From assembly GCA_903902705.1 (NCBI GenBank), contig CAIUVX010000113.1, positions 1,736-65,735 on the forward strand: a stretch of DNA of 64,000 nt. Reading direction: 5' to 3'. Each line of letters opens with the position of its first letter. Positions within the stretch are counted from its first letter, which is position 1. Both the position numbers and the translations under genes were made by a program. The notes beneath the pieces were generated by a model. That model worked only from the letters and a program-made list of their open reading frames with translations. It did no database searches and was not told the origin of the DNA. Positions 20,397 to 34,396 of this stretch are shown here, in pieces. This stretch comes from an uncultured Methylococcales bacterium. GTDB lineage: Bacteria > Pseudomonadota > Gammaproteobacteria > Methylococcales > Methylomonadaceae.

Positions 20397-20430
20397 ATGA
20401 CTGCTAGTCCTTCAAAGGACTGGCAGTCAT
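20397..20430. repeat. Palindromic element ATGACTGCTAGTCCTTCAAAGGACTGGCAGTCAT, a slightly degenerate copy of the 36-bp palindrome family, between hisH and hisA
   Basis: Same sequence family as 37086..37119 and 55235..55270. The ORF-track N-terminal extension of hisA ([12 protein letters not shown]) is just its translation. Confidence 0.8.
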
Positions 20431-20447: not shown

Positions 20448-21182
20448 ATGCTGTTAATTCCCGCTATTGATTTAAAAGATGGAAAATGTGTGCGCCTACG
20501 TCAAGGACGCATGGAAGATGACACGGTATTTTCTGATAATCCTGTTGAAGTTGCAGGTCGTTGGGTTGCCTTAGGTGCAAGACGCATACATTTAGTTGAT
20601 TTAGATGGCGCGTTTGCAGGTAAACCCAGAAATGCCGACGTAATTCACGCGATTGTCGAAGCCTATCCCGATGTTCCTGTGCAAATCGGCGGCGGTATTC
20701 GTGATGAAGATACCATTCAAGCCTATCTCAATGCAGGCGTGGAATACGTCATCATCGGCACTAAAGCCGTCAACGAACCGCATTTTGTTCGTGATATGGC
20801 AATCGAATACCCGCGCCGCATTATCGTCGGCTTGGATGCCAAAGACGGCAAAGTCGCGATTGACGGCTGGTCAAAACTGTCCAAACATGACGTAATCGAT
20901 TTAGCGCAACACTTTGAATCCGATGGCGTAGAAGCCATTATTTACACCGACATTTCCAGAGATGGCATGATGCAAGGTGTCAACGTCGAAGCCACAGCCC
21001 GCTTAGCCCGTGCTATTAACATCCCCGTGATTGCCTCAGGCGGCATCACCAACATGGACGATATACACGCCTTAGGTAAAGTCGCCCACGAAGGCATTAT
21101 GGGCGCGATTACAGGTCGAGCAATTTATGAAGGGTCATTGGATTTTGCCGAAGCGGAGAGGATTGCTGAGACTTACGCATGA
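20448..21182 (+). CDS. hisA: ProFAR isomerase HisA
   Basis: [17 protein letters not shown] start with TGAGG upstream; GGGIR and SGGI motifs. The start at 20448 is preferred over 20397. Confidence 0.93.
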
Positions 21183-21640
21183 AAAGCTCAGAAGAAATAA
21201 AGCAACTTGCTTACGAGCGATTAAGCGAAGCGGAAATACTTTGTGAGAATGAAAAGTATGATGGCGCGTTTTATTTAGCAGGTTACAGTATTGAATTGAT
21301 GCTGAAAGCTAAAGTGTGCGAACATTTTGATATTGATAATTTGTTTGATGAGACGTGTCAAATTTATGGCGTTGGCGAAGTCAGAAAAGCGTTAAAAACG
21401 CACGACATTGGTGTATTGTTAGTGTTTAGTGGTTTATTCATCAAACTTGAAAACGCAAAAAGTACCGATAAAGTGTTAATGCAGACTTATGCTCGCCTGT
21501 TTGCAACATCGGGGCGTTGTTTATGGAATGAGCAGGTACGTTATCAAGTACTTGGTAGTCAGAATGCTGAAAACGTTCAGGCATTGATAACGTTGTTACA
21601 ACATGAAGCAGGAGTATTGCAATGGATAGAAAAGAATTAG
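21179..21640 (+). CDS. HEPN domain-containing protein (predicted RNase-type toxin or effector)
   Basis: 153 aa. HEPN-like N-terminal helix pair ([27 protein letters not shown]) and an intact Rx4-6H motif R69-KALKT-H75 followed by D (codons at 21383..21403). Its ATG overlaps the hisA TGA (ATGA). Confidence 0.7.
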
Positions 21641-21936
21641 CCATTAAATTGGAAGATTTCAAAAAAACGTGTCAAAACAAAGGCTACATCATTGGAGAAC
21701 TTTATTTTGATGAAGCCATTCCAGGCATGATTCCAAGTTCTTTCATTGTCAAAATGATGGTTAAAAAATCATGGATGGACACAATGAGTAGCACGGGCAA
21801 AGCTTTAGACGCACTTATTGATGTACTTTGGGATACCACCGAAGCCAAAACCCGCACAAGTGTCCATGTGTTAAGTATTTATAATGAAGATGAGCGTGAT
21901 TTGCTTGAACAACCGCTACACCGTGAAGTCGCCTAA
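21622..21936 (+). CDS. Hypothetical 104-aa protein, paralog of the N-terminal half of the next gene
   Basis: Overlaps the HEPN gene by 19 nt. Shares MD.KEL...L..F.....Y.I.E...D.A.P.....F..K..V.K.W...S and H.L.IY with 21966..22523. No MNT (GS..DxD) motif visible. Confidence 0.6.
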   Translation: MDRKELAIKLEDFKKTCQNKGYIIGELYFDEAIPGMIPSSFIVKMMVKKSWMDTMSSTGKALDALIDVLWDTTEAKTRTSVHVLSIYNEDERDLLEQPLHREVA

Positions 21937-21965
21937 ATTTTAAATATTTAGTAAGGATTATTGCG

Positions 21966-22523
21966 ATGGATATAAAAGAATTAATAGCTGAATTAAAATA
22001 CTTTATTGAAGGCTATAAAAGTGAGAGCTACCTAATAAATGAACCATGTATTGATGTGGCTTATCCGTTTAGTGTTGATGCTTTTGTTATTAAAATAACA
22101 GTGGAAAAAGAATGGACAGAATCTGTTAGTAATTGGGAGCGTTTATTGATGAATATTCTTAAAAAGACGACCACAGTTAAAACTTATAAAAACATTCACT
22201 TATTAGTTATTTATATTTTTGGCACAACAAAAAAACGTGCTTTAATTAATCCATCTTTAACCTATGAACAAATTAAAAATTTATGTTTTAGTAAAAAGTA
22301 TTATATTCGTCAATTAACTGAAGAGTGTGTAAAGCACGGCAACTTAAGTAACAGACAAATAAAGCAAATATGTCGTATTTTAGATGACGGATATTCTGTA
22401 GATTCTTGTGATAAGGGAATAATTATATTATTAATGGAGAGATACTGGACAAATTACGATTTCAGATGCTTTATAAATAAAAATGGTTTTAAAAAACTAC
22501 GCCTGCTATCTAATAACCTTTAG
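21966..22523 (+). CDS. Hypothetical 185-aa protein: N-terminal domain paralogous to the 104-aa protein plus a unique C-terminal extension of about 95 aa
   Basis: Long ORF in a visibly very AT-rich stretch. N-terminal similarity to the preceding ORF seen by eye. No family recognised. Confidence 0.55.
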   Translation: MDIKELIAELKYFIEGYKSESYLINEPCIDVAYPFSVDAFVIKITVEKEWTESVSNWERLLMNILKKTTTVKTYKNIHLLVIYIFGTTKKRALINPSLTYEQIKNLCFSKKYYIRQLTEECVKHGNLSNRQIKQICRILDDGYSVDSCDKGIIILLMERYWTNYDFRCFINKNGFKKLRLLSNNL

Positions 22524-22552
22524 AATTCAATTAACTAAATAAAAATAAATAC

Positions 22553-23326
22553 ATGAGCCTAGCCAAACGTATTATTCCCTGCCTTGATGTTGATAACGGT
22601 CGCGTTGTAAAAGGCGTGCAGTTTGTTGATATTCGTGATGCAGGAGACCCTGTGGAAATCGCCCGCCGTTATGACCGTGAAGGCGCGGATGAAATCACCT
22701 TTTTAGACATCACTGCTACCCATCATGAACGCAACACAATGGTTCATGTGGTGGAACAAGTTGCCAGTGAAGTGTTTATACCGCTCACGGTGGGCGGCGG
22801 TATTCGTACCTTAGACGACATACGCACCATGTTAAACGCAGGTGCGGATAAGGTTGGCATTAACAGCGCGGCAATCTTTAGACCTGAATTTGTCAGAGAA
22901 GCCGCCGAACGTTTTGGCTCGCAATGTATCGTGGTTGCCATTGATGCCAAAAAAGTCAGTGCGGACGGTGAACCCAATCGCTGGGAGATTTTCACCCACG
23001 GCGGACGCAAACCCACAGGCATAGACGCAGTCGAATGGGCGGTGAAAATGGTTGAATTTGGCGCGGGTGAAATTCTATTAACCAGCATGGACAAAGACGG
23101 CACGAAAAGCGGCTTTAACTTACCCTTAACCCGCGCTGTCAGTGAAGCGGTCTCTGTGCCTGTGATTGCATCGGGTGGCGTAGGTAACTTAGACCATTTA
23201 GCCGAAGGCATACTCGAAGGCAAAGCCGATGCGGTATTAGCCGCCAGTATTTTTCATTTTGGTGAATATACCATTGAACAAGCCAAGCGACATTTGCGTT
23301 CACGCGGTATTGAAGTGAGATTATAA
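22553..23326 (+). CDS. hisF: Imidazole glycerol phosphate synthase, cyclase subunit
   Basis: 257 aa. [18 protein letters not shown] and ASGG motifs. Confidence 0.96.
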
Positions 23327-23328
23327 TC

Positions 23329-23597
23329 ATGCCCACTATTTCTATGTTTTACGGCATTATTATTGTGTGTACTTCATGGATAATAAACAACACAAACTGC
23401 CACATATCCATGTTAAATATCAGGATGATGAAGTTATTGTTGCTATTCCAGAGGGTGATATTTTGGAAGGCAGTATTCCAAAAGCCAAAATGAAATTATT
23501 ACAAGCATGGATTGAAATACATAAGGATGAGTTAATGGCAGATTGGCAACTCGCTGTTTCTGGTGAACTGCCTTATAAAATTGAACCGTTACGTTAA
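23329..23597 (+). pseudogene. DUF4160 domain protein with an apparent frameshift at a GTGTGT run
   Basis: The ATG at 23329 encodes MPTISMFYGIII, the characteristic DUF4160 N-terminus. The rest of the domain (YFMDNKQHKLPHIHVKYQDDE...) continues in another frame from 23367. The frames meet at GTGTGT (23365..23370). Confidence 0.65.
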
Positions 23598-23601
23598 TAT
23601 C

Positions 23602-23871
23602 ATGAATCCCCGTGTTAAAACCGTTAAACCAACGGATGATTATCAATTAATACTGGAATTTACTAATGGTGAATGCGGTATTTATGATTGTAAACCATTA
23701 TTAGATTTTGGTGTATTTAGGGAATTACAAGACATTAACTATTTTAAACAAGTTACTATTATTGATGGCACGGTAACGTGGGTAAATGAACAAGATATTT
23801 GTCCTGATACGCTTTATTTGGATTCTGTGATGATTGATAATGAAATAGCCACAATAGATAGACTGATGTAA
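23602..23871 (+). CDS. DUF2442 domain-containing protein
   Basis: MNPRVKTVKPTDDYQLILEFTNGE...D...L pattern typical of DUF2442. It directly follows DUF4160, as in the common two-gene arrangement. Confidence 0.7.
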   Translation: MNPRVKTVKPTDDYQLILEFTNGECGIYDCKPLLDFGVFRELQDINYFKQVTIIDGTVTWVNEQDICPDTLYLDSVMIDNEIATIDRLM

Positions 23872-23881
23872 AGAAGCCTAT

Positions 23882-23921
23882 CGTTCGCGATTGATGGGCT
23901 TCGTACCTCAGCCCATCCTAT
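23882..23921 (-). repeat. Copy of the repeat ATAGGATGGGCTGAGGYACGAAGCCCAT...TCGCG in inverted orientation relative to 25809..25844
   Basis: The reverse complement of 23882..23921 aligns with 25809..25844 with 3-4 mismatches. Contains an internal GGGCT/AGCCC hairpin. Confidence 0.7.
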
Positions 23922-23971: not shown

Positions 23972-24385
23972 ATGAATGAAATAATTACAAATCTTGTCTT
24001 TAGTATCCCACCAGGTATTGTCAGTGGACTCTATGCTGGGATTGTGGTTGCTAGATACCAACGGTTTGCTGACCTACGTTTGCAAGCAAAAAAACTTATC
24101 CTTGAAATCGAATTCATCAATCATGGCAACAAAATAATTTTTCCCAAAAGAAAAGGCATTCCTGAATTTGATATTATCGTATCGGATTTGCTATTTCTAA
24201 GACACAAGAAGGCGGCAGAGACTATTCTTCAACTTTCTGTAGATATAAGAAGTGCTATTACTAGGGCGGAAGCGGGACAAATCGATATTAATTCATTCAA
24301 TAACGATTATCTATCATGGCAAGTATCGATTCGTAGTATTTCACCAAGCCCTCTCCAAGTGCTTCGGTTATGGGGTGGGCTTTAA
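23972..24385 (+). CDS. Hypothetical protein with an N-terminal transmembrane helix
   Basis: 137 aa; LVFSIPPGIVSGLYAGIVVA hydrophobic segment. No family recognised. Confidence 0.5.
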   Translation: MNEIITNLVFSIPPGIVSGLYAGIVVARYQRFADLRLQAKKLILEIEFINHGNKIIFPKRKGIPEFDIIVSDLLFLRHKKAAETILQLSVDIRSAITRAEAGQIDINSFNNDYLSWQVSIRSISPSPLQVLRLWGGL

Positions 24386-24525
24386 TTCTCCTTGTAACAC
24401 AGTCGAAGACGATCTTGCATCTTCATGATGTATTAAAAGACGCTGGAGCGTCAACTAACGCATTCCAACGCAGAGCGTTGGAACGATTTATTGTAAAGTT
24501 AGCAAATAACGGAGCTTTTATAAAA

Positions 24526-25005
24526 ATGAAAAATAATTTTTTATTCATGGTTTTTATTTTCACCTCTAGTTTTATTAACCCTGTTTCTGTTAATGCAGAG
24601 GGTATTGTTACTATAGCTACACTGACTGGAAAATGTACTAAAGTAGAGGCAATGGGTGTATTGGCAGATCCTAAGTTATGTTCAAACAAATTAATAAACA
24701 ATATACATCCGAATGGTCGTAGTGCATTCACATTTATGCTCAAGGATGATGTACTTATTTATTTTTCAGGGGATGGTTCAAAGCAAATTCATACAGATGA
24801 GGATAATGCAACACAACCCATTGATCGGGTTTCTTTTACTTTTGATGGTAGCACTGATGAACTCAAAGCTATTGGTTTTTGTGTATTTTCAAATCCATAT
24901 AAACATAAACCTGCAAAAGTAATATGCTCTGCCGATACCAGTCAAGGTACATTTTCTGGAGAATTTATCAGTAATGGCGTTAGTCCTGATATTAACGAAA
25001 TATAA
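24526..25005 (+). CDS. Hypothetical secreted protein
   Basis: The start at MKNNFLFMVFIFTSSFINPVSVNA gives a clean signal peptide. The upstream part of the listed ORF (24370..) is translation of dispersed repeats. Confidence 0.5.
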   Translation: MKNNFLFMVFIFTSSFINPVSVNAEGIVTIATLTGKCTKVEAMGVLADPKLCSNKLINNIHPNGRSAFTFMLKDDVLIYFSGDGSKQIHTDEDNATQPIDRVSFTFDGSTDELKAIGFCVFSNPYKHKPAKVICSADTSQGTFSGEFISNGVSPDINEI

Positions 25006-25086
25006 TCGAACCTGTAAGCCTTGTAGGGTACGCCGTGCGTACCTTTAAATCTACGCAAAAATACAGGGAAGTTAATGGCATAAAAA

Positions 25087-25207
25087 AGCCGTGAAGTTGT
25101 TGGCTTCACGGCTTGATGTGTTGGGTTTCGCTATCGCTCTACCCAACCTACAGGCTACGGGCTGAATTGGTATAATCGGTGGGCAAGCAAAAAGACGCTT
25201 GCCCACC
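25087..25207. repeat. Cluster of three structured repeats: hairpin AGCCGTGAAG/CTTCACGGCT (25087..25113), a GTTGGGT...ACCCAACCTAC element (25118..25164), and hairpin GGTGGGCAAGC/GCTTGCCCACC (25178..25207)
   Basis: Stems read directly from the sequence. The second element recurs at 25690..25748. Confidence 0.7.
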
Positions 25208-25246
25208 CTACCTGACTTTACCAAATTTTATTAGGAATTTTAAAAC

Positions 25247-25648
25247 ATGAAAGAGTTTGGTGTTATCACGTTGCTTTTTAGCTTATTTGCTTCTAGTTAT
25301 GCTTATGGTTATGAAACGACCCTTGATCGGGAACAAGAAGAGCGGGAAAAAGATCGAATGTATGGATATATTACTGAACTTGATAACAGACTTATTTCTT
25401 ACAAGAGTTATCATGAAAAAATGCAGTTTTTATCAAAAACAGAGACATATTTAGATAATAATGAAAGTAATTATTCTATATCAGATTTTTACGCTAGAAA
25501 AAACGTAATAATCATTGAAAAATGTGCTTTAGGAGTGAGTTTAAAAATCGATAAAAATAAAGCCATGAAACTATGCAGTTCTGCGTTTTTTGAAGATAAA
25601 AAAAAGGACGCTAAAAAAAAGGACGCTTGGGGCGTTCCTGTTGAGTGA
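25247..25648 (+). CDS. Hypothetical secreted protein
   Basis: 133 aa; signal peptide-like MKEFGVITLLFSLFASSYA; lysine-rich tail. No family recognised. Confidence 0.5.
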   Translation: MKEFGVITLLFSLFASSYAYGYETTLDREQEEREKDRMYGYITELDNRLISYKSYHEKMQFLSKTETYLDNNESNYSISDFYARKNVIIIEKCALGVSLKIDKNKAMKLCSSAFFEDKKKDAKKKDAWGVPVE

Positions 25649-25689
25649 TTTTTATTAAGCCATGTAGGATGGAAAAACAAAAAATGCTT

Positions 25690-25748
25690 GCCAGCTCGTA
25701 GGTTGGGTTTCGTTATCACTCTACCCAACCTACGAGCTACGGGCTGGC
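25690..25748. repeat. Long hairpin element GCCAGCTCGTAGGTTGGGT...ACCCAACCTACGAGCT(ACGG)GCTGGC
   Basis: Arms of about 19 nt read from the sequence. Same family as 25118..25164 and related to 48843..48875 and 48915..48947. Confidence 0.7.
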
Positions 25749-25808
25749 ATGAATCATTAATCGTTACAACGCTCCGCGTTGTAACGCAACCGAAGACGCT
25801 CTAGCACG

Positions 25809-25844
25809 ATAGGATGGGCTGAGGCACGAAGCCCATTATTCGCG
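25809..25844 (+). repeat. Repeat ATAGGATGGGCTGAGGCACGAAGCCCATTATTCGCG, inverted partner of 23882..23921
   Basis: See 23882..23921. It is preceded by a TCGTTACAACGCTCCGCGTTGTAACG hairpin (25761..25786). Confidence 0.7.
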
Positions 25845-25914
25845 TTGCAACAATGCAAATCTTATCGCGTTATTTTTACAAAAAAACCGTTAAATCTATC
25901 GAGTAAGAATATTA

Positions 25915-26157
25915 ATGCCATTTGAAGTTATTAGCGAAATTAACGAAATAGAAACATTTACTGTCGGTTCTAAAATTCGAGAATTGAATAGATTGCAAGA
26001 GACTTATGGCAAAGGACGTTGGCGGAAATGCAAAGGAACTGCCATTATTAAACTAACGGATAATTCATTATTTTTAGCTGAATTACATTGGTATGAAGCA
26101 AAAGGAATTGGCAAAAAAGAACTGAAAATTAAATCGTTGTTGGAGGAAATACAATGA
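25915..26157 (+). CDS. Conserved hypothetical 80-aa protein, first gene of an overlapping pair
   Basis: GKGRWRKCKGTAIIKL....AELHWYEAKGIGKKELKIK motif. I recall it from unannotated small proteins in other bacteria but cannot name a family. Confidence 0.55.
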   Translation: MPFEVISEINEIETFTVGSKIRELNRLQETYGKGRWRKCKGTAIIKLTDNSLFLAELHWYEAKGIGKKELKIKSLLEEIQ

Positions 26158-26390
26158 TAGCGTCTGATATAAAAACAGATGGTTTTGTGGTTTGCATAGA
26201 TAATAAAGAATATCCTGCTTCTTTGGAACAGTTTAAAATTTATCGTGTGCTTGTAGATGAAACTGCCGCTCAACATAATTTTATCCGCGTCATTGATGAA
26301 TCGGGCGAAGATTATTTATATCCTGCTGATTATTTCATGCCGATTACGCTCACTGAACAAATTGCCCTAGCGATTTTACAAGCCGCTTAA
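26154..26390 (+). CDS. Conserved hypothetical 78-aa protein, second gene of the overlapping pair
   Basis: ATGA overlap with the previous gene. YPASLE..KIY.....E.AA.....RVIDESGEDYLYPADYF motif. No named family recognised. Confidence 0.55.
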   Translation: MIASDIKTDGFVVCIDNKEYPASLEQFKIYRVLVDETAAQHNFIRVIDESGEDYLYPADYFMPITLTEQIALAILQAA

Positions 26391-26436: not shown

Positions 26437-26832
26437 ATGAATTGGTTAAATGAAATTCGCTGGACAGAAGAGGGCTTAATCCCTGTGATTGCCCAGCAAC
26501 ACGACAGCGGCAAAGTGGTGATGTTTGCGTGGATGAATCGTGAATCCTTGGCTTTAACGGTGCAGGAAGGTTATGCGGTGTATTGGTCACGCTCACGCGG
26601 TCGGTTATGGCGTAAGGGCGAAGAATCAGGGCATAGACAAAAAGTCATCGGCTTATTTATGGATTGTGATGAAGATGTGCTGTTGCTGCACATTGAACAA
26701 GAAGGCGGTATTGCCTGTCATACGGGACGTGAAAGCTGTTTTTATCGGCAGTTGGTTGATGGGCAATGGCAAGCAGTTGAGCCTGTGTTAAAAAATCCAG
26801 CCGAGATTTATGCAACACACGATGTAATTTGA
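26437..26832 (+). CDS. hisI: Phosphoribosyl-AMP cyclohydrolase (monofunctional, no HisE domain)
   Basis: 131 aa. [30 protein letters not shown] and CHTG..SCF motifs. Confidence 0.93.
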
Positions 26833-26980: not shown

Positions 26981-27490
26981 TTATCGATCTAATAATCCCA
27001 ATAATCCTTTCATTAATGCTAATGGTGTCGGCGGACAACCACTGATAGTCATATCAACAGGAATCACGTTAGACACCGCGCCACAGCACGCATAAGACTG
27101 ACCAAATTCACCGCCACAGACAGCGCAATCACCGACAGCGACTACCCATTTTGGATTAGGGGTGGCTTCATAAGTGCGTAACAGCGCAGTTTGCATGTGG
27201 CGTGATACTGGACCTGTGACTAATAACACATCGGCATGACGGGGCGAGGCGACGAAGTGAATACCAAAACGTTCAATGTCATAAAATGGATTATTGATAG
27301 CGTGAATTTCTAATTCACAGCCGTTACACGAACCCGCATCCACTTGACGAATGGCGATACTGCCCGAAAACTTTTTATCAATGCGGCGTTTAATTTCAAT
27401 CCCTAAAGTTTCCAGTTCCGCATCTTTAGGTGCTTTACATTTTTCGGTGACAATTCCCGTGGTGACTATTTTTTTCAGTAGTTTTAACAT
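26981..27490 (-). CDS. NuoB/HycG/HyfI-like small subunit of a group-4-hydrogenase-like membrane complex
   Basis: 169 aa. Retains the four cysteines of the proximal [4Fe-4S] site (GSCNGCE, GDCA, GCPP). Confidence 0.85.
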   Translation of the reverse strand: MLKLLKKIVTTGIVTEKCKAPKDAELETLGIEIKRRIDKKFSGSIAIRQVDAGSCNGCELEIHAINNPFYDIERFGIHFVASPRHADVLLVTGPVSRHMQTALLRTYEATPNPKWVVAVGDCAVCGGEFGQSYACCGAVSNVIPVDMTISGCPPTPLALMKGLLGLLDR

Positions 27491-27499
27491 GGTCGTTTC

Positions 27500-29110
27500 C
27501 TATAAATCATTGCCCGAATACGAGCCATTCAGGGATTTGTTACACACGGGAAAATCAGGAACTATATTATTAAGTGCCAGTTTTTCTAATGCAGGCCAGT
27601 TTAAAATACTGGGATCACGCGGATAAAAACGGGCGATTTTATTATCTGCTGCAAAACGTATGTATGAAATAATTTCACCGCGAAAACCATCAACGATTCC
27701 CAAGCCTTCGCTATCTATTGCAGGGGTTTTCCACGTCGTTGTGATTTCACCTTCTGGCAACAATTGAATAAAGCGTTCGATAAGTTTTAATGAGGCATTA
27801 ATTTCTTTATGCCTTACCCAAAACCGTGACGCAATATCGCCTTGGTCTTCAAGTGCGACTTTAAAGCTGACTTGATCGTAAGGCGCGTAAGCTGCGTCAC
27901 GGCGTACATCAAAATCTTGTCCGCTGGCACGTCCCACATAACCGACTGTACCAAATGCTGCCGCTATCTCAGGCGATAAATAACCCGCTGTATATAATCT
28001 GTCTTCTAAAGAGGAGTTAAGGTCTACGGCAAGCATGATTTCTGCTAGTTCTTCTCTGATTTGAATAATGTCTTTTTTGAGCAATTCACAAGACAGTTGC
28101 GATACATCACAACTCACACCCGCAGGAATAACAACATCCATCAACAACCGATGCCCAAACACACTGGCATTGGTACGCAACCACAACTCGCGCAAACGGG
28201 TGAACTGCATTTGCGCAAAAGTAAACGCCACGTCATTACAAATCGCGCCCATATCACCGAGATGATTAGCGATACGTTCACGTTCTGCCACGATGCCGCG
28301 TATCAAATTGGCGCGTGCGGGTACGACAATGTCAGCCGCTTGTTCCATTGCCTGACACGCTGCCCAACAATGCCCCACTGTGCTGTCACCTGAAACCCGT
28401 CCTGCTAAACGTGCTAAGGATTCTGGCGTTCTACCCTCGGCAATTTTTTCGATACCTTTATGCACATAACCTAAGCGTTCTTCAAGATTCAAAATCAACT
28501 CTCCCACCGCTAGAAAACGAAAATGGCCTGGTTCAATAATGCCCGCATGAACGGGCCCGACGGGGATTTCATACACACCTGCACCGTGACCTTTGATAAA
28601 GTCATAGTGCATATCGGGCGGTGTAATATCGGCGGGTGAGCCTTGTGCTGGAAAATCTTTGCGCAAGGGGTATTGGTGTTTGTCCCACGCCTGATGACGT
28701 GTCCAGCGGCGATTATCAGGATGTCCGATAAATTTTATACCGAACATATCTTGGGTGTGGCGTTCACTACGATTTGCCGCTGGATAAACCGTGGCTTGCG
28801 TAGGCAGTTCGAGTTTTGTACCATTAATTAGGGTACGCAATACGATATAAACGCCGTGTTTTTCAAAACAGGCGTTAACCATAAACTGTTCATTCGCTTG
28901 TTCTGCCCAACCTGCCACCCAGCGCAATTTTTCTGCAACCGCAGTGATAGCGAAATGTTGCCAATGTTTATCTGCAATTTGCCATACAGCGACGTTATTT
29001 AGGGGCGAATGGTGGACAATACCTCCGATATAATCACCAATCGGTTTGTCTGGCATTTCTGGATCTATCCAGCCAACGTGTTGAGTTAAAAATGTGGTTG
29101 TCCAGTTCAT
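27500..29110 (-). CDS. Fused NuoC-NuoD / HycE-HyfG-like large subunit that appears to lack the NiFe cysteine ligands (Ehr/MBX-like)
   Basis: 536 aa. GPVHAGIIEPGHFRF and RLGYVHKGIEK motifs. RVSGDS (28382..28399) sits where hydrogenases have R.CG.C. The C-terminus DFPVCNKSLNGSYSGNDL (SYSG at 27512..27523) sits where they have DPC..C. Confidence 0.8.
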   Translation of the reverse strand: MNWTTTFLTQHVGWIDPEMPDKPIGDYIGGIVHHSPLNNVAVWQIADKHWQHFAITAVAEKLRWVAGWAEQANEQFMVNACFEKHGVYIVLRTLINGTKLELPTQATVYPAANRSERHTQDMFGIKFIGHPDNRRWTRHQAWDKHQYPLRKDFPAQGSPADITPPDMHYDFIKGHGAGVYEIPVGPVHAGIIEPGHFRFLAVGELILNLEERLGYVHKGIEKIAEGRTPESLARLAGRVSGDSTVGHCWAACQAMEQAADIVVPARANLIRGIVAERERIANHLGDMGAICNDVAFTFAQMQFTRLRELWLRTNASVFGHRLLMDVVIPAGVSCDVSQLSCELLKKDIIQIREELAEIMLAVDLNSSLEDRLYTAGYLSPEIAAAFGTVGYVGRASGQDFDVRRDAAYAPYDQVSFKVALEDQGDIASRFWVRHKEINASLKLIERFIQLLPEGEITTTWKTPAIDSEGLGIVDGFRGEIISYIRFAADNKIARFYPRDPSILNWPALEKLALNNIVPDFPVCNKSLNGSYSGNDL

Positions 29111-30570
29111 AACGGACTACTCCCTGAAATTAAAAAGGTCGCTTGTGAAAACCAATGCGCCAAAAAGCCTGGAATGGCTAAACCTAGCCATAACACTAAG
29201 GCTAAATGAATTATCACAGGTAATAAGTTGGCTTTAACAGGCTGTTGACCTTCGGGTTTTTCACCGTACACCATGGGTTGTATGTGACGAAATAAGCCCG
29301 CAAAAGCAATACCGATACCGAGTAATAACGGCAAAGTCAGCCACGGATAACTGTGCATAGTCGCCAGTAATACTAAAAATTCACTGGTGAATACGCCAAA
29401 CGGAGGGAAGCCTGCAATAGAAATCGTGCCAATTAATAAGCCCCAGCCGATTTTGGGTTGGGTTTTAATCAGTCCGCGTATTTTGTCCATGCGTTGTGTG
29501 CCTGCGACTTGGGTAGCATGACCGACGGTGACAAAAATTGCCGATTTGGTGAGTGAATGGACAGTCATGTGTAGCAAAGCGGCAAAAGTAGCCAACGCGC
29601 CACCGACACCAAACGCAAAAGTCATTAAACCCATGTGTTCAATAGAGGAGTAACTGAACAAGCGTTTAATGTCTTTTTGTCTGTGTAAAAATAACGCACC
29701 GACTAAAAATGACAACAAACCAAAGCCCATCATTAAATGTCCCGCCATATCGGAATGGGTCGCGCCATCGACTAACATTTTGTTACGCACTACTGCGTAT
29801 AAAGCATCATTCAATAACAAGCCTGATAAAACCGCCGACATTGGTGTTGGTCCTTCGGAATGCGCATCGGGTAGCCAGTTGTGCAACGGTACTAAACCAA
29901 TTTTCGTACCGTAACCAATCAGCATAAATACAAAGGCAATTTGCAATACTTCGGGATTTAATTGACTGGCGTGTTGAAACAGTTCTGACCACAACAGCGC
30001 GTTTTCGCCGTCACCAATTTGCACCGCCGCGTAATACAATAAAATTGTGCCGAACAGAGCTTGAGCAATACCGACACCACACAGTATGAAATATTTCCAC
30101 GCGGCTTCGATAGATTCAGGGGTGCGGTATAAACTCACCAACAAGACCGTTGCCAGTGTTGCCGCTTCCATACCAACCCACATCACGCCCATGTTATTGG
30201 TGGTCAATACCAAATACATCGCCAACATGAAGCCTTGATACATTGAGTAGTACAGCTTCAAGCGTTTATCAGTGAGTTTGCCCAGTTCTTTTTCATGCGC
30301 CATGTAGGGATTGGAAAAGATAGATGTGGTCAAGCCAACAAACGCGGTCAAGACAATCAAGTAGACATTAAATGAATCAATCAAAAACGCTTTATCAGCC
30401 GATAAAATCGTACCGTTATTAAGTACGTTAATGGCTAACCATATCGTGGCAAATAAACTAACACTATTAAACCAAACATTTATTTTTCCTATTTCGGCTT
30501 TATGTCCTGATAAGGCAAAAAACACGATGCCAACAAAGGCAATGGATAACAACAAATAGACGGGGATCAT
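29107..30570 (-). CDS. HyfF/NuoM/NuoN-like proton-conducting antiporter-type membrane subunit
   Basis: 487 aa polytopic membrane protein. WLPDAH..GPTP.SA.LSG motif of the Mrp/NuoLMN family. 4-nt overlaps with both neighbours. Confidence 0.85.
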   Translation of the reverse strand: MIPVYLLLSIAFVGIVFFALSGHKAEIGKINVWFNSVSLFATIWLAINVLNNGTILSADKAFLIDSFNVYLIVLTAFVGLTTSIFSNPYMAHEKELGKLTDKRLKLYYSMYQGFMLAMYLVLTTNNMGVMWVGMEAATLATVLLVSLYRTPESIEAAWKYFILCGVGIAQALFGTILLYYAAVQIGDGENALLWSELFQHASQLNPEVLQIAFVFMLIGYGTKIGLVPLHNWLPDAHSEGPTPMSAVLSGLLLNDALYAVVRNKMLVDGATHSDMAGHLMMGFGLLSFLVGALFLHRQKDIKRLFSYSSIEHMGLMTFAFGVGGALATFAALLHMTVHSLTKSAIFVTVGHATQVAGTQRMDKIRGLIKTQPKIGWGLLIGTISIAGFPPFGVFTSEFLVLLATMHSYPWLTLPLLLGIGIAFAGLFRHIQPMVYGEKPEGQQPVKANLLPVIIHLALVLWLGLAIPGFLAHWFSQATFLISGSSPL

Positions 30571-31244
30571 TTGTCCACCTCATTTAATTTATTCATTAAA
30601 TCCACATCCAAAGAATCAATGCTAGAGCGAATATGAAAGAAGAAAATACCGAACAATACGGCGGCGACTAATACGTCAAAGGCAATACCCAGTTCGACCA
30701 CCATCGGCATTCCTTTCGTGGCAACAATGGCGGCAAAAAATAAGCCGTTTTCGATGGACATAAAACCGACAACGTGAGCAATGGCTTGTTTATGAGAAAT
30801 CATTAATAGCATTCCTAATAACACCACCGACAAACTCACCGCCAAGGCGTTCAGCATCACGGGTGAAGTGGTTTGGACGATAGGATGTAAAACGTAATAA
30901 CTAAACACCATTAAACTTGCACCGCCTAACATAATGGCGGTTTGATTACCTAAGGCTTCCACATCACGGTGCAGGTTGGATTTTAAGACTTCGTTGCGTA
31001 GCATCCACGGAATAAAAATCACTTTTAGCGCGAGCGTTAATACCGCTGAAATGTATAAATGATGATTGTCTAAACTGTACGCGGCGACAGCCGTGGTCAG
31101 TGTCAATAACAAACCCTGTATCGCAAATACAAAAATCAAGCGTAATAAACGACCTTGCCCTAACATCAAAAAAGAGGTTAATCCCACTAATGCCGCCATT
31201 GATAAAATGATTTGCGTATACAAATCTTGCGATTCAATATTCAT
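30567..31244 (-). CDS. HyfE-like small membrane subunit
   Basis: 225 aa from the ATG at 31244 (MNIESQDLYTQIIL...), which forms an ATGA overlap with the upstream gene. The 302-aa version in the ORF track runs through the preceding gene. Confidence 0.75.
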   Translation of the reverse strand: MNIESQDLYTQIILSMAALVGLTSFLMLGQGRLLRLIFVFAIQGLLLTLTTAVAAYSLDNHHLYISAVLTLALKVIFIPWMLRNEVLKSNLHRDVEALGNQTAIMLGGASLMVFSYYVLHPIVQTTSPVMLNALAVSLSVVLLGMLLMISHKQAIAHVVGFMSIENGLFFAAIVATKGMPMVVELGIAFDVLVAAVLFGIFFFHIRSSIDSLDVDLMNKLNEVDK

Positions 31245-32185
31245 CGTGAAGCCTCCAAAATGATGTGACTCAACATACCCAGCAAGCCCAGTAAATAAGC
31301 AAAACCTAGGTACTCTTGCACTCTGAATAAGCGCATTTTTGCAACTAGCGTTTCTGCGATGCCCAAAATAATGGATAACACCATCAGTTTGCCGATAATT
31401 GCCAGTAGCCCATAGCCCAAATCGTGTAGCGAGAAGGTTTGCGCTATACCCCACGGAAAAAAGATATTGGCACACAACACCCCATAGAGCATTAATTTAA
31501 GCTGACTAGCCCATTCAATTAACGCTAAATGCCGTCCGCTGTATTCCAGAATCATAGCTTCATGAATCATAGTCAGCTCTAAATGGGTGGTCGGATTATC
31601 CACAGGAATACGCCCTGTTTCTGCCACTGCCACCAAAATTAACGCGAATAAAGCGAATACAAACGAGGGACGTAATACCAGCCCCTGTTCTAATACATGG
31701 CTAATTGCCAACGATAAATTAGTGGTTGAAGCGGTCATGGTTAACGTAAAAATAGCCATTAACATCGCGGGTTCGGCTAACGAGGAAATAGTCATTTCTC
31801 TCGATGAACCCATGCCACCAAATGCTGTACCCACATCGAGTCCTGCTAATGCCAGAAAAAACCGTGCAAACGCAAAAAAACCCACCATCACAATCACATC
31901 CGCGCTTGCAGAGGTGGGTAGATCAACAGCGATCAACGGAACGACTGTGGCGGCCAATACGGTCGCCGAAAAAATAATATAGGGTGCTTTTATGAATAAC
32001 CACGAAGCTTGTTCAGAAACAACAGGCTGTTTATTGGTTAATTTTAGTAAATCCCGATACGGCTGTAACAGCGATGGAGGTTGTCGGTTTTGTAGATAAC
32101 ATTTACAGACTTTTAACCAACCTGCCAATAAGGGGGCTAAAGCAACAAACAAGGTAGTTTGTAATATAGCGATTAACCAGTTCAT
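31241..32185 (-). CDS. HyfC/HycD/NuoH-like membrane subunit
   Basis: 314 aa, polytopic. GR.PVDNP..H.ELTM.HE motif characteristic of HycD/NuoH. Confidence 0.85.
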   Translation of the reverse strand: MNWLIAILQTTLFVALAPLLAGWLKVCKCYLQNRQPPSLLQPYRDLLKLTNKQPVVSEQASWLFIKAPYIIFSATVLAATVVPLIAVDLPTSASADVIVMVGFFAFARFFLALAGLDVGTAFGGMGSSREMTISSLAEPAMLMAIFTLTMTASTTNLSLAISHVLEQGLVLRPSFVFALFALILVAVAETGRIPVDNPTTHLELTMIHEAMILEYSGRHLALIEWASQLKLMLYGVLCANIFFPWGIAQTFSLHDLGYGLLAIIGKLMVLSIILGIAETLVAKMRLFRVQEYLGFAYLLGLLGMLSHIILEASR

Positions 32186-32222
32186 GCTATTTCTCCAGTA
32201 GGCGCGAATTCATTCGCATTTT

Positions 32223-32251
32223 CTCGTTCCCACGCGCTGCGTGGGAACGAG
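32223..32251. repeat. Hairpin repeat CTCGTTCCCACGCGCTGCGTGGGAACGAG, inside the hyf-like operon between the HyfB-like and HyfC-like genes
   Basis: 11-12-bp stem read from the sequence. It belongs to the TCGTTCC(C/A)ACGC...GCGT(G/T)GGAACGA family seen at about 10 loci in the window. Confidence 0.8.
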
Positions 32252-32290
32252 TGAATGACAGGCAGTCCTTTATACTTAGTAATCTATTCA

Positions 32291-34396
32291 TCAGCTAATC
32301 ACCCACAACAACACCAACAAAGTGACAAACGAGTAGCCTAAATAAGTTCGGATATTGCCCGTTTGAATGCGCCCAACCTGTTTGGATAAGTTATTTACGC
32401 CACGCTCTAAAGGTTGATAGACCCACGGCCAACTATGATCTTGAATATGTAAGGCATAATGCACCGCAGCCACATCTTGATCCATAGCACCCTGCATGTC
32501 TTTATTGACTTGTTCATCAATAATCCATGCTTTGGCAAAAATGCGCCGAAACGGCATAGTGAAGGCACTAGAGGTGTACTGCATACGCGGCGTTAAACCG
32601 CCAAAGCCACAATCCCACGTTTCTCCAATACGAATGGCTTTATCTGGGTCACGGCGTAAATACCAATAACACACGCAACCCGCTATCAACGCGCCGATTA
32701 ACACCAACGGTGGTGAATAAGACGCTTGTTCAGGGGCAACAGGAGCAAGCCATAGCCAACTTAATCCGTTGTTATTCGCCAAAGTTTGATTCAATAACTG
32801 CCCTGTCACGCGATTAATTAAGCGAATAATTACACTGGGAAAAATACCGACTAAAAAGCACATTCCCGCTAATAAAGTCGTTGCCGCTATCATGCCTTTA
32901 TCTTTCACTTCATGAGCTTTTTCACTATGACGTGAACGAGGTACACCCAAAAACGTTAACCCAAACACTTTGACAAAACACGCTGCGGCTAAGGCGGCGG
33001 TTAATGCCAATGCAGCCGCAGACACAGGAATCAAACTGCGTAACACGCCGTTATCCAAGACATCCACTTGCAATGCGGTTTGAAACGCCAACCATTCAGA
33101 GACAAAACCGTTAAACAACGGCAAAGAAGAAATACTCATACAGCCGACTAAAAACACCATGCTGGTTTGCGGCATTTTTTTAATTAAACCGCCCAACATA
33201 TCGATGTTCAGTTCGTGGGTTTGCTGGTGAATCATACCTGCACCCAAAAACAACAAGTTCTTGAATAATGCGTGGTTGAAAGCATGAAACAACGCAGCTA
33301 AAAACCCCAATGCGGCTAATTCTGGGTGTCCGTTATCGAGAAAAATCATAGCCAAACCCAGCACCATAAAAATAATGCCAATGTTTTCGACTGAACTATA
33401 CGCCAACAAACGTTTTAAATTCGGCTGCATCATGGCGTATAAAATTCCGCCTAAGGCTGAGATTGTACCGATGACTAGTAACACCACGCCCCATTGCCAC
33501 TGAATTTTATCCAGCAAATCAAAGCTAAAACGTATTAAGCCATATATGGCAACTTTCAACATCACGCCACTCATCAGCGCGGAAATATGCGACGGTGCGA
33601 CAGGATGAGCTTCAGGCAACCAGACATGAATCGGCACTATACCTGCTTTCATGCCAAAGCCTAACACCGCTAAACCAAAGGCGATACTTGCCCAAGTAGT
33701 TGATAACTGCGCGTGCCGCAAGGCATCAAAGGTAAAGCCATCCGAAAAACTTGCCAACACGCCAAAGGCTAAAATAATGGCTAACGCGCCGACTTCTGCC
33801 ATCAATAAATATAAGAATGCCGCTCTACGATTAGCAGAGTTTTCATGTTGAAACGCTACCAAAAAGTAACTGGCAACTGACATTAATTCCCACGCAATCA
33901 TAAACACAAAAGCATCATCAGCGAGTAACACCAACAACATTCCTGTGACAAATAAGCCTGTAAACAAACCCAGTACCGCAAAGGGATGGTCTTTTTCTTT
34001 GTAATGATGCACATAACCTGGCCCGTATAAACTAACCGCGCCGACGGCAATGCCGATGATTAAAAAGAAAAATCCCGACAATGCGTCAAAACGAATATGC
34101 CAAGGCAACCACGGCAAACCTAAACCGATTTGGTCAGTCACTACCGTGTTGCTTATTAGCACGCTTAAGCCCGCTAATACCGCAAATCCGCCTGACAATC
34201 CCAATGCTATAAATACCACTTGCCGTAAAAAATTAGGATAGTGATGTTCTTCCAAACAATGATCTATAAATGCAGAAGGGGTTTTTAAAAACCTGTGTTG
34301 CAGTGCTAACAGGAACTGCTGTTGATTACTTAGCAAGGCTAACAAACCAGAAGTAAAACTGAATAGCACAGCACAATAAGCTAATAATAGAATCAT
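32291..34396 (-). CDS. HyfB/NuoL/MrpA-like antiporter-type membrane subunit
   Basis: 701 aa polytopic protein. WLPEAHP.APS..SALMSG and LLAYSS.EN.G motifs. Confidence 0.85.
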   Translation of the reverse strand: MILLLAYCAVLFSFTSGLLALLSNQQQFLLALQHRFLKTPSAFIDHCLEEHHYPNFLRQVVFIALGLSGGFAVLAGLSVLISNTVVTDQIGLGLPWLPWHIRFDALSGFFFLIIGIAVGAVSLYGPGYVHHYKEKDHPFAVLGLFTGLFVTGMLLVLLADDAFVFMIAWELMSVASYFLVAFQHENSANRRAAFLYLLMAEVGALAIILAFGVLASFSDGFTFDALRHAQLSTTWASIAFGLAVLGFGMKAGIVPIHVWLPEAHPVAPSHISALMSGVMLKVAIYGLIRFSFDLLDKIQWQWGVVLLVIGTISALGGILYAMMQPNLKRLLAYSSVENIGIIFMVLGLAMIFLDNGHPELAALGFLAALFHAFNHALFKNLLFLGAGMIHQQTHELNIDMLGGLIKKMPQTSMVFLVGCMSISSLPLFNGFVSEWLAFQTALQVDVLDNGVLRSLIPVSAAALALTAALAAACFVKVFGLTFLGVPRSRHSEKAHEVKDKGMIAATTLLAGMCFLVGIFPSVIIRLINRVTGQLLNQTLANNNGLSWLWLAPVAPEQASYSPPLVLIGALIAGCVCYWYLRRDPDKAIRIGETWDCGFGGLTPRMQYTSSAFTMPFRRIFAKAWIIDEQVNKDMQGAMDQDVAAVHYALHIQDHSWPWVYQPLERGVNNLSKQVGRIQTGNIRTYLGYSFVTLLVLLWVIS

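Follow-up and report, generated by a model that had tools for sequence, protein, structure and literature searches.

A HEPN gene with a coupled partner of a new protein family between hisA and hisF of Methylococcales: a candidate toxin–antitoxin-type module

HEPN RNases are among the commonest toxin and defence effectors of prokaryotes. Their known neutralisers are minimal nucleotidyltransferase (MNT) enzymes, RNAs, as for AbiV, and RnlB-type proteins. We analysed a 64-kb stretch of DNA from an uncultured Methylococcales bacterium (assembly GCA_903902705.1, contig CAIUVX010000113.1). This whole stretch is referred to as the window and coordinates are positions within it. Three open reading frames (ORFs), termed g1, g2 and g3, lie between the histidine biosynthesis genes hisA and hisF. 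The first encodes a HEPN-like protein of 153 amino acids (aa). The second encodes a 104-aa protein, X, and the two genes recur as a pair in other bacteria. Our reading, to which we give a probability of roughly 55%, is that HEPN-X is an autonomous two-gene module of toxin–antitoxin (TA) type, with the toxin gene first and a protein antitoxin.

One close comparison is with AbiV of Lactococcus (abiV1/abiV2), a type III TA and abortive infection (Abi) system. Like AbiV, g1 is a small stand-alone protein of the HEPN-T/AbiV type. Both have an R-x5-H motif of the same spacing after helix 2 (91-RNHKSKH-97 in AbiV, 69-RKALKTH-75 in g1) and, in the helix before it, conserved Glu and Lys. Both systems have two components, with a partner that restrains the RNase (10.1101/2024.05.05.592566; PMC3710099); for g1 and X this is a prediction. 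There are also clear differences. The AbiV family models score g1 far below cut-off (PF18728, 13.3 of 27.1 bits; TIGR04498, 13 of 27) and AbiV, at 201 aa, is longer than g1. The AbiV antitoxin is an upstream RNA, abiV2, whereas the sequence upstream of g1 is hisA, with a 4-nucleotide overlap. The partner here is instead a downstream coupled protein with a confidently predicted fold and a ratio of non-synonymous to synonymous divergence (dN/dS) of 0.11.

The HepT/MntA (type VII) system likewise joins a small HEPN protein to one small neutralising protein, a role predicted here for X, and is likewise very mobile, scattered over chromosomes and common in environmental bacteria (PMC7641770; PMC3710099). 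However, MNT genes are almost always 5' of the HEPN gene (PMC3710099), while here HEPN is 5'. Furthermore, no MNT is present, X has no nucleotidyltransferase family, motif or fold, and g1 lacks the Rx4HxY motif.

In rnlAB, the toxin gene comes first. In RnlA–RnlB and in LsoA–LsoB, a small dedicated protein antitoxin binds the HEPN RNase toxin and thereby inhibits it (PMC8266594), as is predicted for HEPN-X. RnlA differs in being a multi-domain protein of 357 aa. Among Pfam families, none with RnlA or RnlB in its name matched a window protein at E≤1, and no RnlB-like entry was among the top 50 listed Foldseek matches of X in the Protein Data Bank (PDB). HEPN-X shares only general logic with RnlAB.

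A sequence-only reading of this DNA had proposed a HEPN-based, TA-like cassette with a non-MNT partner. That proposal stands as a candidate, and no description of it was found in family libraries. Similarly, neither a HEPN gene between hisA and hisF nor the X partner family was described in the literature searched, a limited library. We regard HEPN-X as a HEPN toxin-type module whose protein partner belongs to a new family and which lives, unusually, as a polymorphic element embedded in an operon.

The HEPN protein and its motif

The locus is on the forward strand. Its left flank is hisA (20448–21182; Pfam His_biosynth, E 3.6e-83) and its right flank hisF (22553–23326; Pfam His_biosynth, E 2.5e-88). 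The g1 gene (21179–21640), which encodes the predicted RNase toxin, begins at an ATGA in which its start codon overlaps the stop codon of hisA. Its 3' end (..WIEKN-stop) runs over the 5' end of g2 (MDRKEL..) for 19 nucleotides (21622–21640). An AGGAG Shine-Dalgarno sequence for g2 is located at 21610–21614, 7 nucleotides 5' of the ATG. We considered a HEPN-X frameshift fusion; no canonical slippery heptamer was noticed on reading the 19-nucleotide overlap. The g2 gene (21622–21936) encodes X, a member of an uncharacterised family and the predicted cognate antitoxin. The 185-aa g3 (21966–22523) begins 29 nucleotides after g2. The GC content is 0.38 for both g1 and g2. ORF coordinates and reading of the sequence bear out the three ORFs, on one strand and with these overlaps, as first described. 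They do not constitute a single three-gene unit; a conserved pair has received one later addition.

We assigned g1 to HEPN by several routes. The Pfam HEPN model PF05168 matches with 24.2 bits, narrowly above its cut-off of 22, and over residues 5–47 only. The AlphaFold2 model is all-helical, with a predicted local distance difference test score (pLDDT) of 92. Its best Foldseek neighbours in the PDB, all with weak scores, are nearly all HEPN proteins (1ufb, 1o3u, 1wol, 3o10, 4nqf, 2hsb, 9bj6 and 8xeh). These include TT1696, TM0613, ST0689, the sacsin HEPN domain, AF0298, AbiV (9bj6) and a HEPN-MNT complex. We found 183 homologues of g1. A distant homologue on the Acinetobacter plasmid pAJ4131 is secure by hhalign (probability 99.7%) and itself scores 26.8 bits against Pfam HEPN, covering profile positions 8–107 of 117. 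The assignment of g1 is bridged by this homologue, because it matches the HEPN profile almost end to end. Sequence searches of the PDB with the HEPN profile, the X profile and the plasmid HEPN protein gave nothing meaningful.

Lys43, His75, Leu80, Trp116, Arg121 and Tyr122 are invariant in 53 of 53 family members, and Glu118 is found in 98%. Arg69 is kept in most of the 53, replaced by Lys in four, and absent from the most distant members and the pAJ4131 homologue. According to the secondary structure of the model, the R-x5-H motif (69-RKALKTH-75, codons 21383–21403) is in the helix 2–3 insert, as reported for AbiV. At the canonical motif site, the end of helix 3, only Arg121 is conserved in the family. 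The Rx4HxY motif is absent: the residues after His75 are Asp and Ile, so that position +2 is not Tyr, and Tyr122 follows Arg121 rather than His.

This arrangement has a precedent. In AbiV and HEPN-T proteins of the AF0298 type, the His comes from the helix 2–3 insert and a basic residue is kept at the canonical motif position (PMC3710099, Anantharaman 2013). The AbiV motif is in a flexible insert, and the substitutions R91A and R91A/H97A abolish rRNA cleavage (10.1101/2024.05.05.592566). By analogy, 69-RKALKTH-75 is best read as an AbiV-type motif and not a classical helix-3 motif, while the second invariant block (W116-N-E-Q-V-R121-Y122, codons 21524–21544) probably holds the basic residue of the canonical position. 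Hence, an intact Rx4-6H motif had been rightly noted from the sequence, but it is not at the canonical HEPN position and its Arg is not invariant in the family. By the same analogy, g1 is plausibly an active RNase.

The nearest characterised relatives by motif type are anti-phage AbiV (10.1101/2024.05.05.592566; PMC13064643) and the HEPN toxin RnlA (PMC8266594). This speaks for an alternative in which HEPN-X is an abortive-infection or anti-phage system, its HEPN RNase effector restrained by X. Here X would sense a phage cue, or be lost when host expression is shut off, as for AbiV or RnlAB, and allele diversity would reflect an arms race with phage inhibitors. The weak AbiV model matches also favour it, as do a homologue of g1 that carries PF18728 (P0038) and a match of g1 to phrog_5737 (E 6e-9). 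Mechanistically the alternative overlaps with a TA-type module and differs in selective function. We regard it as possible but unlikely, and several observations described below count against it.

The partner family X and the distribution of the pair

X could not be placed in any Pfam, NCBIfam, PADLOC or PHROGs family. Exhaustive searching of 1.84 billion representative proteins with an X profile recovered only about 70 clusters at 50% identity. Nearly all members are about 100 aa long and a subset are 175–194 aa. The AlphaFold2 model of X (pLDDT 87) has the order alpha-beta-beta-alpha-alpha-beta-alpha. Neither the PDB nor a library of viral models gave a significant fold match (best E 0.011, template modelling (TM) score ≤0.56); the nearest folds are generic two-layer alpha/beta domains, namely EscJ, the MamM C-terminal domain and BolA. 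Conservation across phyla mostly concerns hydrophobic residues. Further conserved are Cys17 (87%), the Glu31-Ala-Tyr-Pro-Gly35 loop between the first two strands (69–90%), Trp51 (94%) and Arg78 (85%). Met1-Asp2 is also conserved, because it is fixed by the overlapping HEPN codons for Trp-Ile.

Two identities for X were tried and rejected. A divergent MNT is not supported: no nucleotidyltransferase was found for X in Pfam, NCBIfam or PADLOC, there was no PDB sequence match, and no nucleotidyltransferase appeared among the Foldseek PDB matches. A barstar-like RNase inhibitor was hinted at by Pfam (E 0.14), and the fold search did not support it.

X could alternatively be an enzyme that covalently modifies HEPN in a type VII-like manner, as MntA AMPylates HepT. 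The polar or unusual residues of X conserved across phyla (Cys17, the Glu31–Gly35 loop, Trp51, Arg78) would suit this. So would invariant Tyr122 of g1 which, beside Arg121, recalls the Tyr of the HepT Rx4HxY motif that MntA AMPylates (PMC7641770; PMC3710099). Conversely, X matches no enzyme family, nucleotidyltransferase or other, and has no G[SG]...DxD motif. Its domain is only about 90 residues long, with no obvious catalytic dyad or triad, and conservation of its first two residues is partly forced by the HEPN codons. A modifying enzyme is improbable.

The HEPN protein was initially taken to be an orphan, lacking the MNT partner usual for its type. The absence of an MNT is confirmed: Pfam, NCBIfam and PADLOC contain no nucleotidyltransferase family that g2 or g3 matches at E≤1 and, judged by ORF content, about 50 related loci have no MNT beside HEPN-X. 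The protein is no orphan, since translational coupling ties it to a partner of its own, X, which is conserved in at least five phyla. The neighbourhood conserved in other genomes is the pair, and the proposed trio fails in its third gene.

Scanning with a HEPN profile, one genome per species, identified 56 loci. In about 28 Methylococcales genomes the pair occupies the junction of hisA and hisF, in the order hisB-hisH-hisA-HEPN-X-hisF. The carriers are Crenothrix, Methylovulum (including the isolate M. psychrotolerans Sph1), Methyloprofundus, and Methylomonas and Methylocucumis metagenome-assembled genomes (MAGs). In these genomes, 4-nucleotide overlaps are usual at hisA/HEPN and at X/hisF. 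Elsewhere, HEPN-X is found in Bacteroidota (Mucilaginibacter, Dyadobacter, Spirosoma, Saprospiraceae and Chitinophagales) and in one MAG each of Planctomycetaceae, Acidobacteriota and Ignavibacteria. Outside Methylococcales the pair has no his genes nearby, no conserved neighbours and ordinary intergenic spacers. The HEPN/X overlap is nevertheless exactly 19 nucleotides in about 40 of some 50 loci, from Methylococcales to Bacteroidota, Planctomycetota and Ignavibacteria.

As a control independent of HEPN, we used 80 metagenome contigs anchored on hisA (74–91% identical; contig taxonomy unassigned), of which 72 contain hisF. In about 70 of the 72, hisA directly abuts hisF, which answers the check proposed at the outset. 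The cassette is present in one (L077). A further contig outside the 72, L081, has HEPN after hisA and ends before hisF. Because his-free loci exist elsewhere and most hisA relatives lack the cassette, HEPN-X is, on its distribution, taken to be an autonomous, mobile, accessory module and not part of histidine biosynthesis.

These data bear directly on another possibility, that the pair is a housekeeping accessory of the Methylococcales his operon which, for example, processes or stabilises his mRNA or tunes hisF. In support, about 28 genomes of several genera have it at the same junction, where start and stop codons overlap by 4 nucleotides at either end, purifying selection acts on the two genes and no internal terminator is predicted. 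However, the module occurs without his genes in Bacteroidota, Planctomycetota, Acidobacteriota and Ignavibacteria, and about 70 of the 72 hisA-anchored relatives do without it. This role is very improbable, and was rejected on distribution and on the variability described in the next section.

Context also informs the anti-phage alternative. In 27 non-Methylococcales loci, 100 neighbouring proteins were mostly housekeeping and the PADLOC matches were generic ATPase or DprA-type cross-matches. Hence, there is no enrichment of defence genes around HEPN-X in these loci. PADLOC has no model for g1, g2 or g3. Both results argue against a classical defence-island system. The embedding of the Methylococcales module in a biosynthetic operon also argues against an anti-phage role, as does the failure to find phage or viral-contig copies, to which we return below.

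Allelic divergence, recombination and the extra gene g3

We compared the window with six genomes matched by their flanks (L010, L014, L017, L020, L028 and L050). Their hisA and hisF proteins are 97–99% identical to those of the window. By comparison, HEPN is 49–90% and X 31–88% identical. Synonymous divergence (dS) is 0.2–0.4 in hisB, hisH, hisA, hisF and the nearby DUF4160/DUF2442 pair. In the cassette, dS is saturated (>1.4 or not computable) in every genome of the set except L014, where it is 0.50–0.52 versus 0.23–0.24 in the flanks, about twofold. In genomes with saturated cassette dS, identity to the window is 49–62% for HEPN and 31–53% for X. Relative to L014, HEPN has a dN/dS of 0.12 and X one of 0.11. 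Since purifying selection thus acts on each of them, their divergence does not simply reflect rapid protein evolution. For a housekeeping accessory, identities of 31–62% beside enzymes at 97–99% would be hard to explain, as would the HEPN pseudogenes of several carriers. Conversely, extreme polymorphism and recombination are typical of defence loci, a further point for an anti-phage role. More generally, the polymorphism favours a conflict function, and what maintains the cassette may be addiction or selfish persistence, abortive infection of the AbiV and RnlAB kind, or both.

HEPN and X diverge together. Compared pairwise among 25 genomes, the identities of HEPN and X correlate with one another (Pearson 0.69) and hardly with those of hisA or hisF. 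The genome nearest by HEPN is often not the nearest by hisA. The hisA and hisF genealogies also conflict: L018 and L028 are 87% identical in hisA and 97% in hisF, and for L011 and L022 the values are 82% and 95%. The conflict involves L011, L013, L015, L018, L021, L022, L025 and L028, and implies recombination breakpoints at or in the cassette. The cassette is lower in GC than its flanks in 25 of 25 genomes, by 9–13 points or more.

A neighbour-joining tree of HEPN plus X, drawn without support values, groups all Methylococcales alleles in a single clade. Close relatives of the window are spread over at least five deep branches of this clade, each shared with other genera. The simplest reading of these sequences is one old entry between hisA and hisF, followed by the long persistence of deeply diverged allele classes, which homologous recombination via the conserved flanks would have moved. 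A recent insertion of the cassette into this his operon is not supported. Instead, it is old, clade-wide and highly polymorphic at this junction in Methylococcales.

Gain and loss are unequal between the genes. Extra X copies are present in the window and metagenome contig L059 (g3), in L001 and L022 (upstream of HEPN) and in L044 (downstream). No extra HEPN copy was seen at any locus examined. In L020, L026, L032, L042, L047 and L050, HEPN is frameshifted, interrupted or truncated while X is intact.

The extra copy in the window is carried by a lineage-specific insertion of about 0.62 kb (21937–22552), at what was ancestrally the junction of the X stop and hisF start. In L014, the closest genome (hisA 99%, HEPN 90%, X 88%), g3 is absent and the X stop overlaps the hisF start, ..GCCGCATGAGCC.. 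The blastn alignment of the window with L014 stops at 21914 and resumes at 22552. The same g3-carrying insertion is in L059. A word-indexed search of 5.8 billion protein clusters returned only two close relatives of g3.

The N-terminal X domain of g3 (21966–22235) is a divergent paralogue of g2. The paralogy withstands alignment (BLASTP E 7e-10, with 33% of 87 aa identical). Run against the 64-kb window, a profile of g2 and its homologues scores g3 at 3.9e-32 and has no other match; the N-terminal 90 residues of g3 make up one of the 19 rows of that profile. The C-terminal domain (22236–22523; about 95 aa) has no Pfam family. It is of the type found in the long-X subfamily, in which an X domain is followed by a domain of about 90 aa with an NP.LT.EQIK motif; g3, with NP.LT.EQIK..L, aligns to this subfamily. 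Specifically, its C-terminal domain aligns with the long-X proteins of L001, L011, L025, L022, L010 and L050 and with P0148–P0168. Long-X is itself the HEPN-coupled partner in L001, L010, L011, L022, L025 and L050, where its GC content is 0.27–0.30.

The marked AT-richness of g3, seen at first inspection, is real (GC 0.28 versus 0.49 in hisA and hisF). A recent tandem duplication of g2 was rejected, since identity is only 33%, g3 belongs to the low-GC long-X subfamily and L014 lacks it. On these comparisons, we conclude that g3 is a horizontally acquired extra partner gene, as the sequence-only reading had suspected. It is under purifying selection (dN/dS 0.24 versus L059, from 18 non-synonymous and 16 synonymous changes). 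Counting g3 as a duplicated partner within the system was mistaken; it is a lineage-specific extra.

Spare antitoxins that protect against non-cognate or lost alleles are a concept from work on TA and polymorphic toxin systems. The locus resembles such orphan antitoxin or anti-addiction genes, in that additional copies of the predicted neutraliser, never of the toxin, accompany a polymorphic locus (g3, L001, L022, L044). It differs from polymorphic secreted toxins: the HEPN protein here has no secretion or trafficking domain.

Proposed mechanism, genomic setting and implications

The reading of HEPN-X as a TA-type module is based on small coupled genes that travel and diverge together, accumulation of X copies and decay of HEPN. 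Briefly, we propose that g1 would be a metal-independent RNase toxin resembling AbiV and HEPN-T. Its active site would comprise His75 and Arg/Lys69, on the helix 2–3 insert, plus invariant Lys43, Arg121 and Tyr122. X would be a dedicated small alpha/beta protein, produced by translational coupling to g1, and is predicted to neutralise it by direct binding, following type II logic. In Methylococcales, the module may have entered between hisA and hisF once, to be transcribed within the his operon. Deeply diverged allele classes would then persist and be shuffled between lineages by homologous recombination through the his flanks. The g3 product could serve as a spare or non-cognate antitoxin, that is, an anti-addiction or immunity gene.

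Several observations weigh against this interpretation. The Pfam HEPN match is confined to the N-terminal third of g1, and the structural neighbours of the protein are weak (E 0.4–3, TM 0.44–0.58). Two small, co-directional, overlapping genes that form a mobile unit of patchy distribution resemble a generic type II TA system. DNA-binding domains are common, though not universal, in type II antitoxins. X differs in having none: no helix-turn-helix, ribbon-helix-helix or AbrB domain was found in X or the long-X C-terminal domain by Pfam, nor in X by fold search. The asymmetry of decay has one exception, L029, which keeps HEPN and has a frameshifted X; the contig name (tig...) suggests a long-read assembly, in which frameshifts may be assembly errors. 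The same caution applies to all disruption counts, as these rest on MAGs. No convincing internal promoter or terminator was found in the Methylococcales cassette, meaning that it has no recognisable promoter of its own. Hence, the Methylococcales pair seems to rely on transcription of the his operon.

Evidence from mobile elements is also sparse. We found no HEPN match in phages by tblastn and nothing in viral contigs scanned with the HEPN and X profiles. Plasmids yielded only two HEPN homologues, both distant and each with a different partner. These too count against the proposal. The cassette itself had no blastn match in plasmids. On pAJ4131 of Acinetobacter johnsonii (L060, 2998–3797), the distant HEPN homologue is followed, with an overlap of about 22 nucleotides, by a 134-aa unknown protein that is not X by hhalign. 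On a Deinococcus plasmid (L061, 2998–4766), the partner is a 460-aa DUF3800 protein, again with an overlap of about 22 nucleotides. The wider HEPN clade may swap downstream partners.

A stronger version of the TA-type reading can be held only tentatively. HEPN-X might represent a new class of HEPN TA or immunity system with an unseen antitoxin fold. In methanotrophs it might form a balanced, recombining, multi-allelic locus inside the his operon, with stray X genes such as g3 providing cross-immunity. If so, expression and loss of the cassette would be tied to histidine biosynthesis, and g3-like X copies would permit or resist allele replacement.

The remainder of the his operon region has further small genes. 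For hisA, the ORF opens at 20397 and the starts of homologues (L001, L002) correspond to 20448, which is likely the true start; the extension from 20397 runs through a repeat element. Between hisF and hisI is an overlapping pair, DUF4160 (23367–23597) and DUF2442 (23563–23871), found at the same site in L001, L002/L009, L010, L011, L014, L020, L028 and L050. Unlike HEPN-X, this pair tracks the flanks (89–99% aa identity, dS 0.13–0.31). By these sequence comparisons, it is a second small two-gene module in the same operon that evolves quite differently.

An AT-rich island of about 2.4 kb (23972–26390), made up of small unknown ORFs, separates DUF2442 from hisI (PRA-CH; 26437–26832). It includes a pair of genes for 80- and 78-aa proteins (25915–26157 and 26154–26390) with a 4-nucleotide overlap and no Pfam family. 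In other Methylococcales (L001), the his operon carries other inserts, such as Uma2 twice, Unstab_antitox and ORF11_beta. Overall, the Methylococcales his operon looks like a hotspot for small accessory genes. Short repeats resembling REP or MITE elements are located at 20397–20430, 23886–23921, 25809–25844, 25120–25164 and 25702–25746. A 36-nucleotide inverted repeat pair (92% complementary) brackets much of the island, and there is also a 45-nucleotide direct repeat. A related element of 34–42 nucleotides between hisH and hisA recurs elsewhere in L010, L014, L017, L020 and L050. Right after hisI, the window has no hisE; instead, a minus-strand cluster (26981–34396) resembles, from translations alone, membrane and large-subunit genes of the hydrogenase-4/formate-hydrogenlyase type. 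In related genomes such as L002, hisE and tatABC follow hisI.

As the predicted antitoxin of HEPN-X, X would add a further, structurally unassigned family to the protein inhibitors of HEPN. The co-diverged alleles of toxin and partner are a natural series useful for mapping specificity, and Methylovulum psychrotolerans Sph1 (L008) is a cultured carrier. The setting is unusual, in that a conflict-type cassette sits mid-operon among the histidine genes, translationally fused with them, across an order of bacteria. It would offer a tractable natural case for studying how an essential operon comes to harbour a selfish or defence module permanently, and how recombination through the flanks exchanges such modules.

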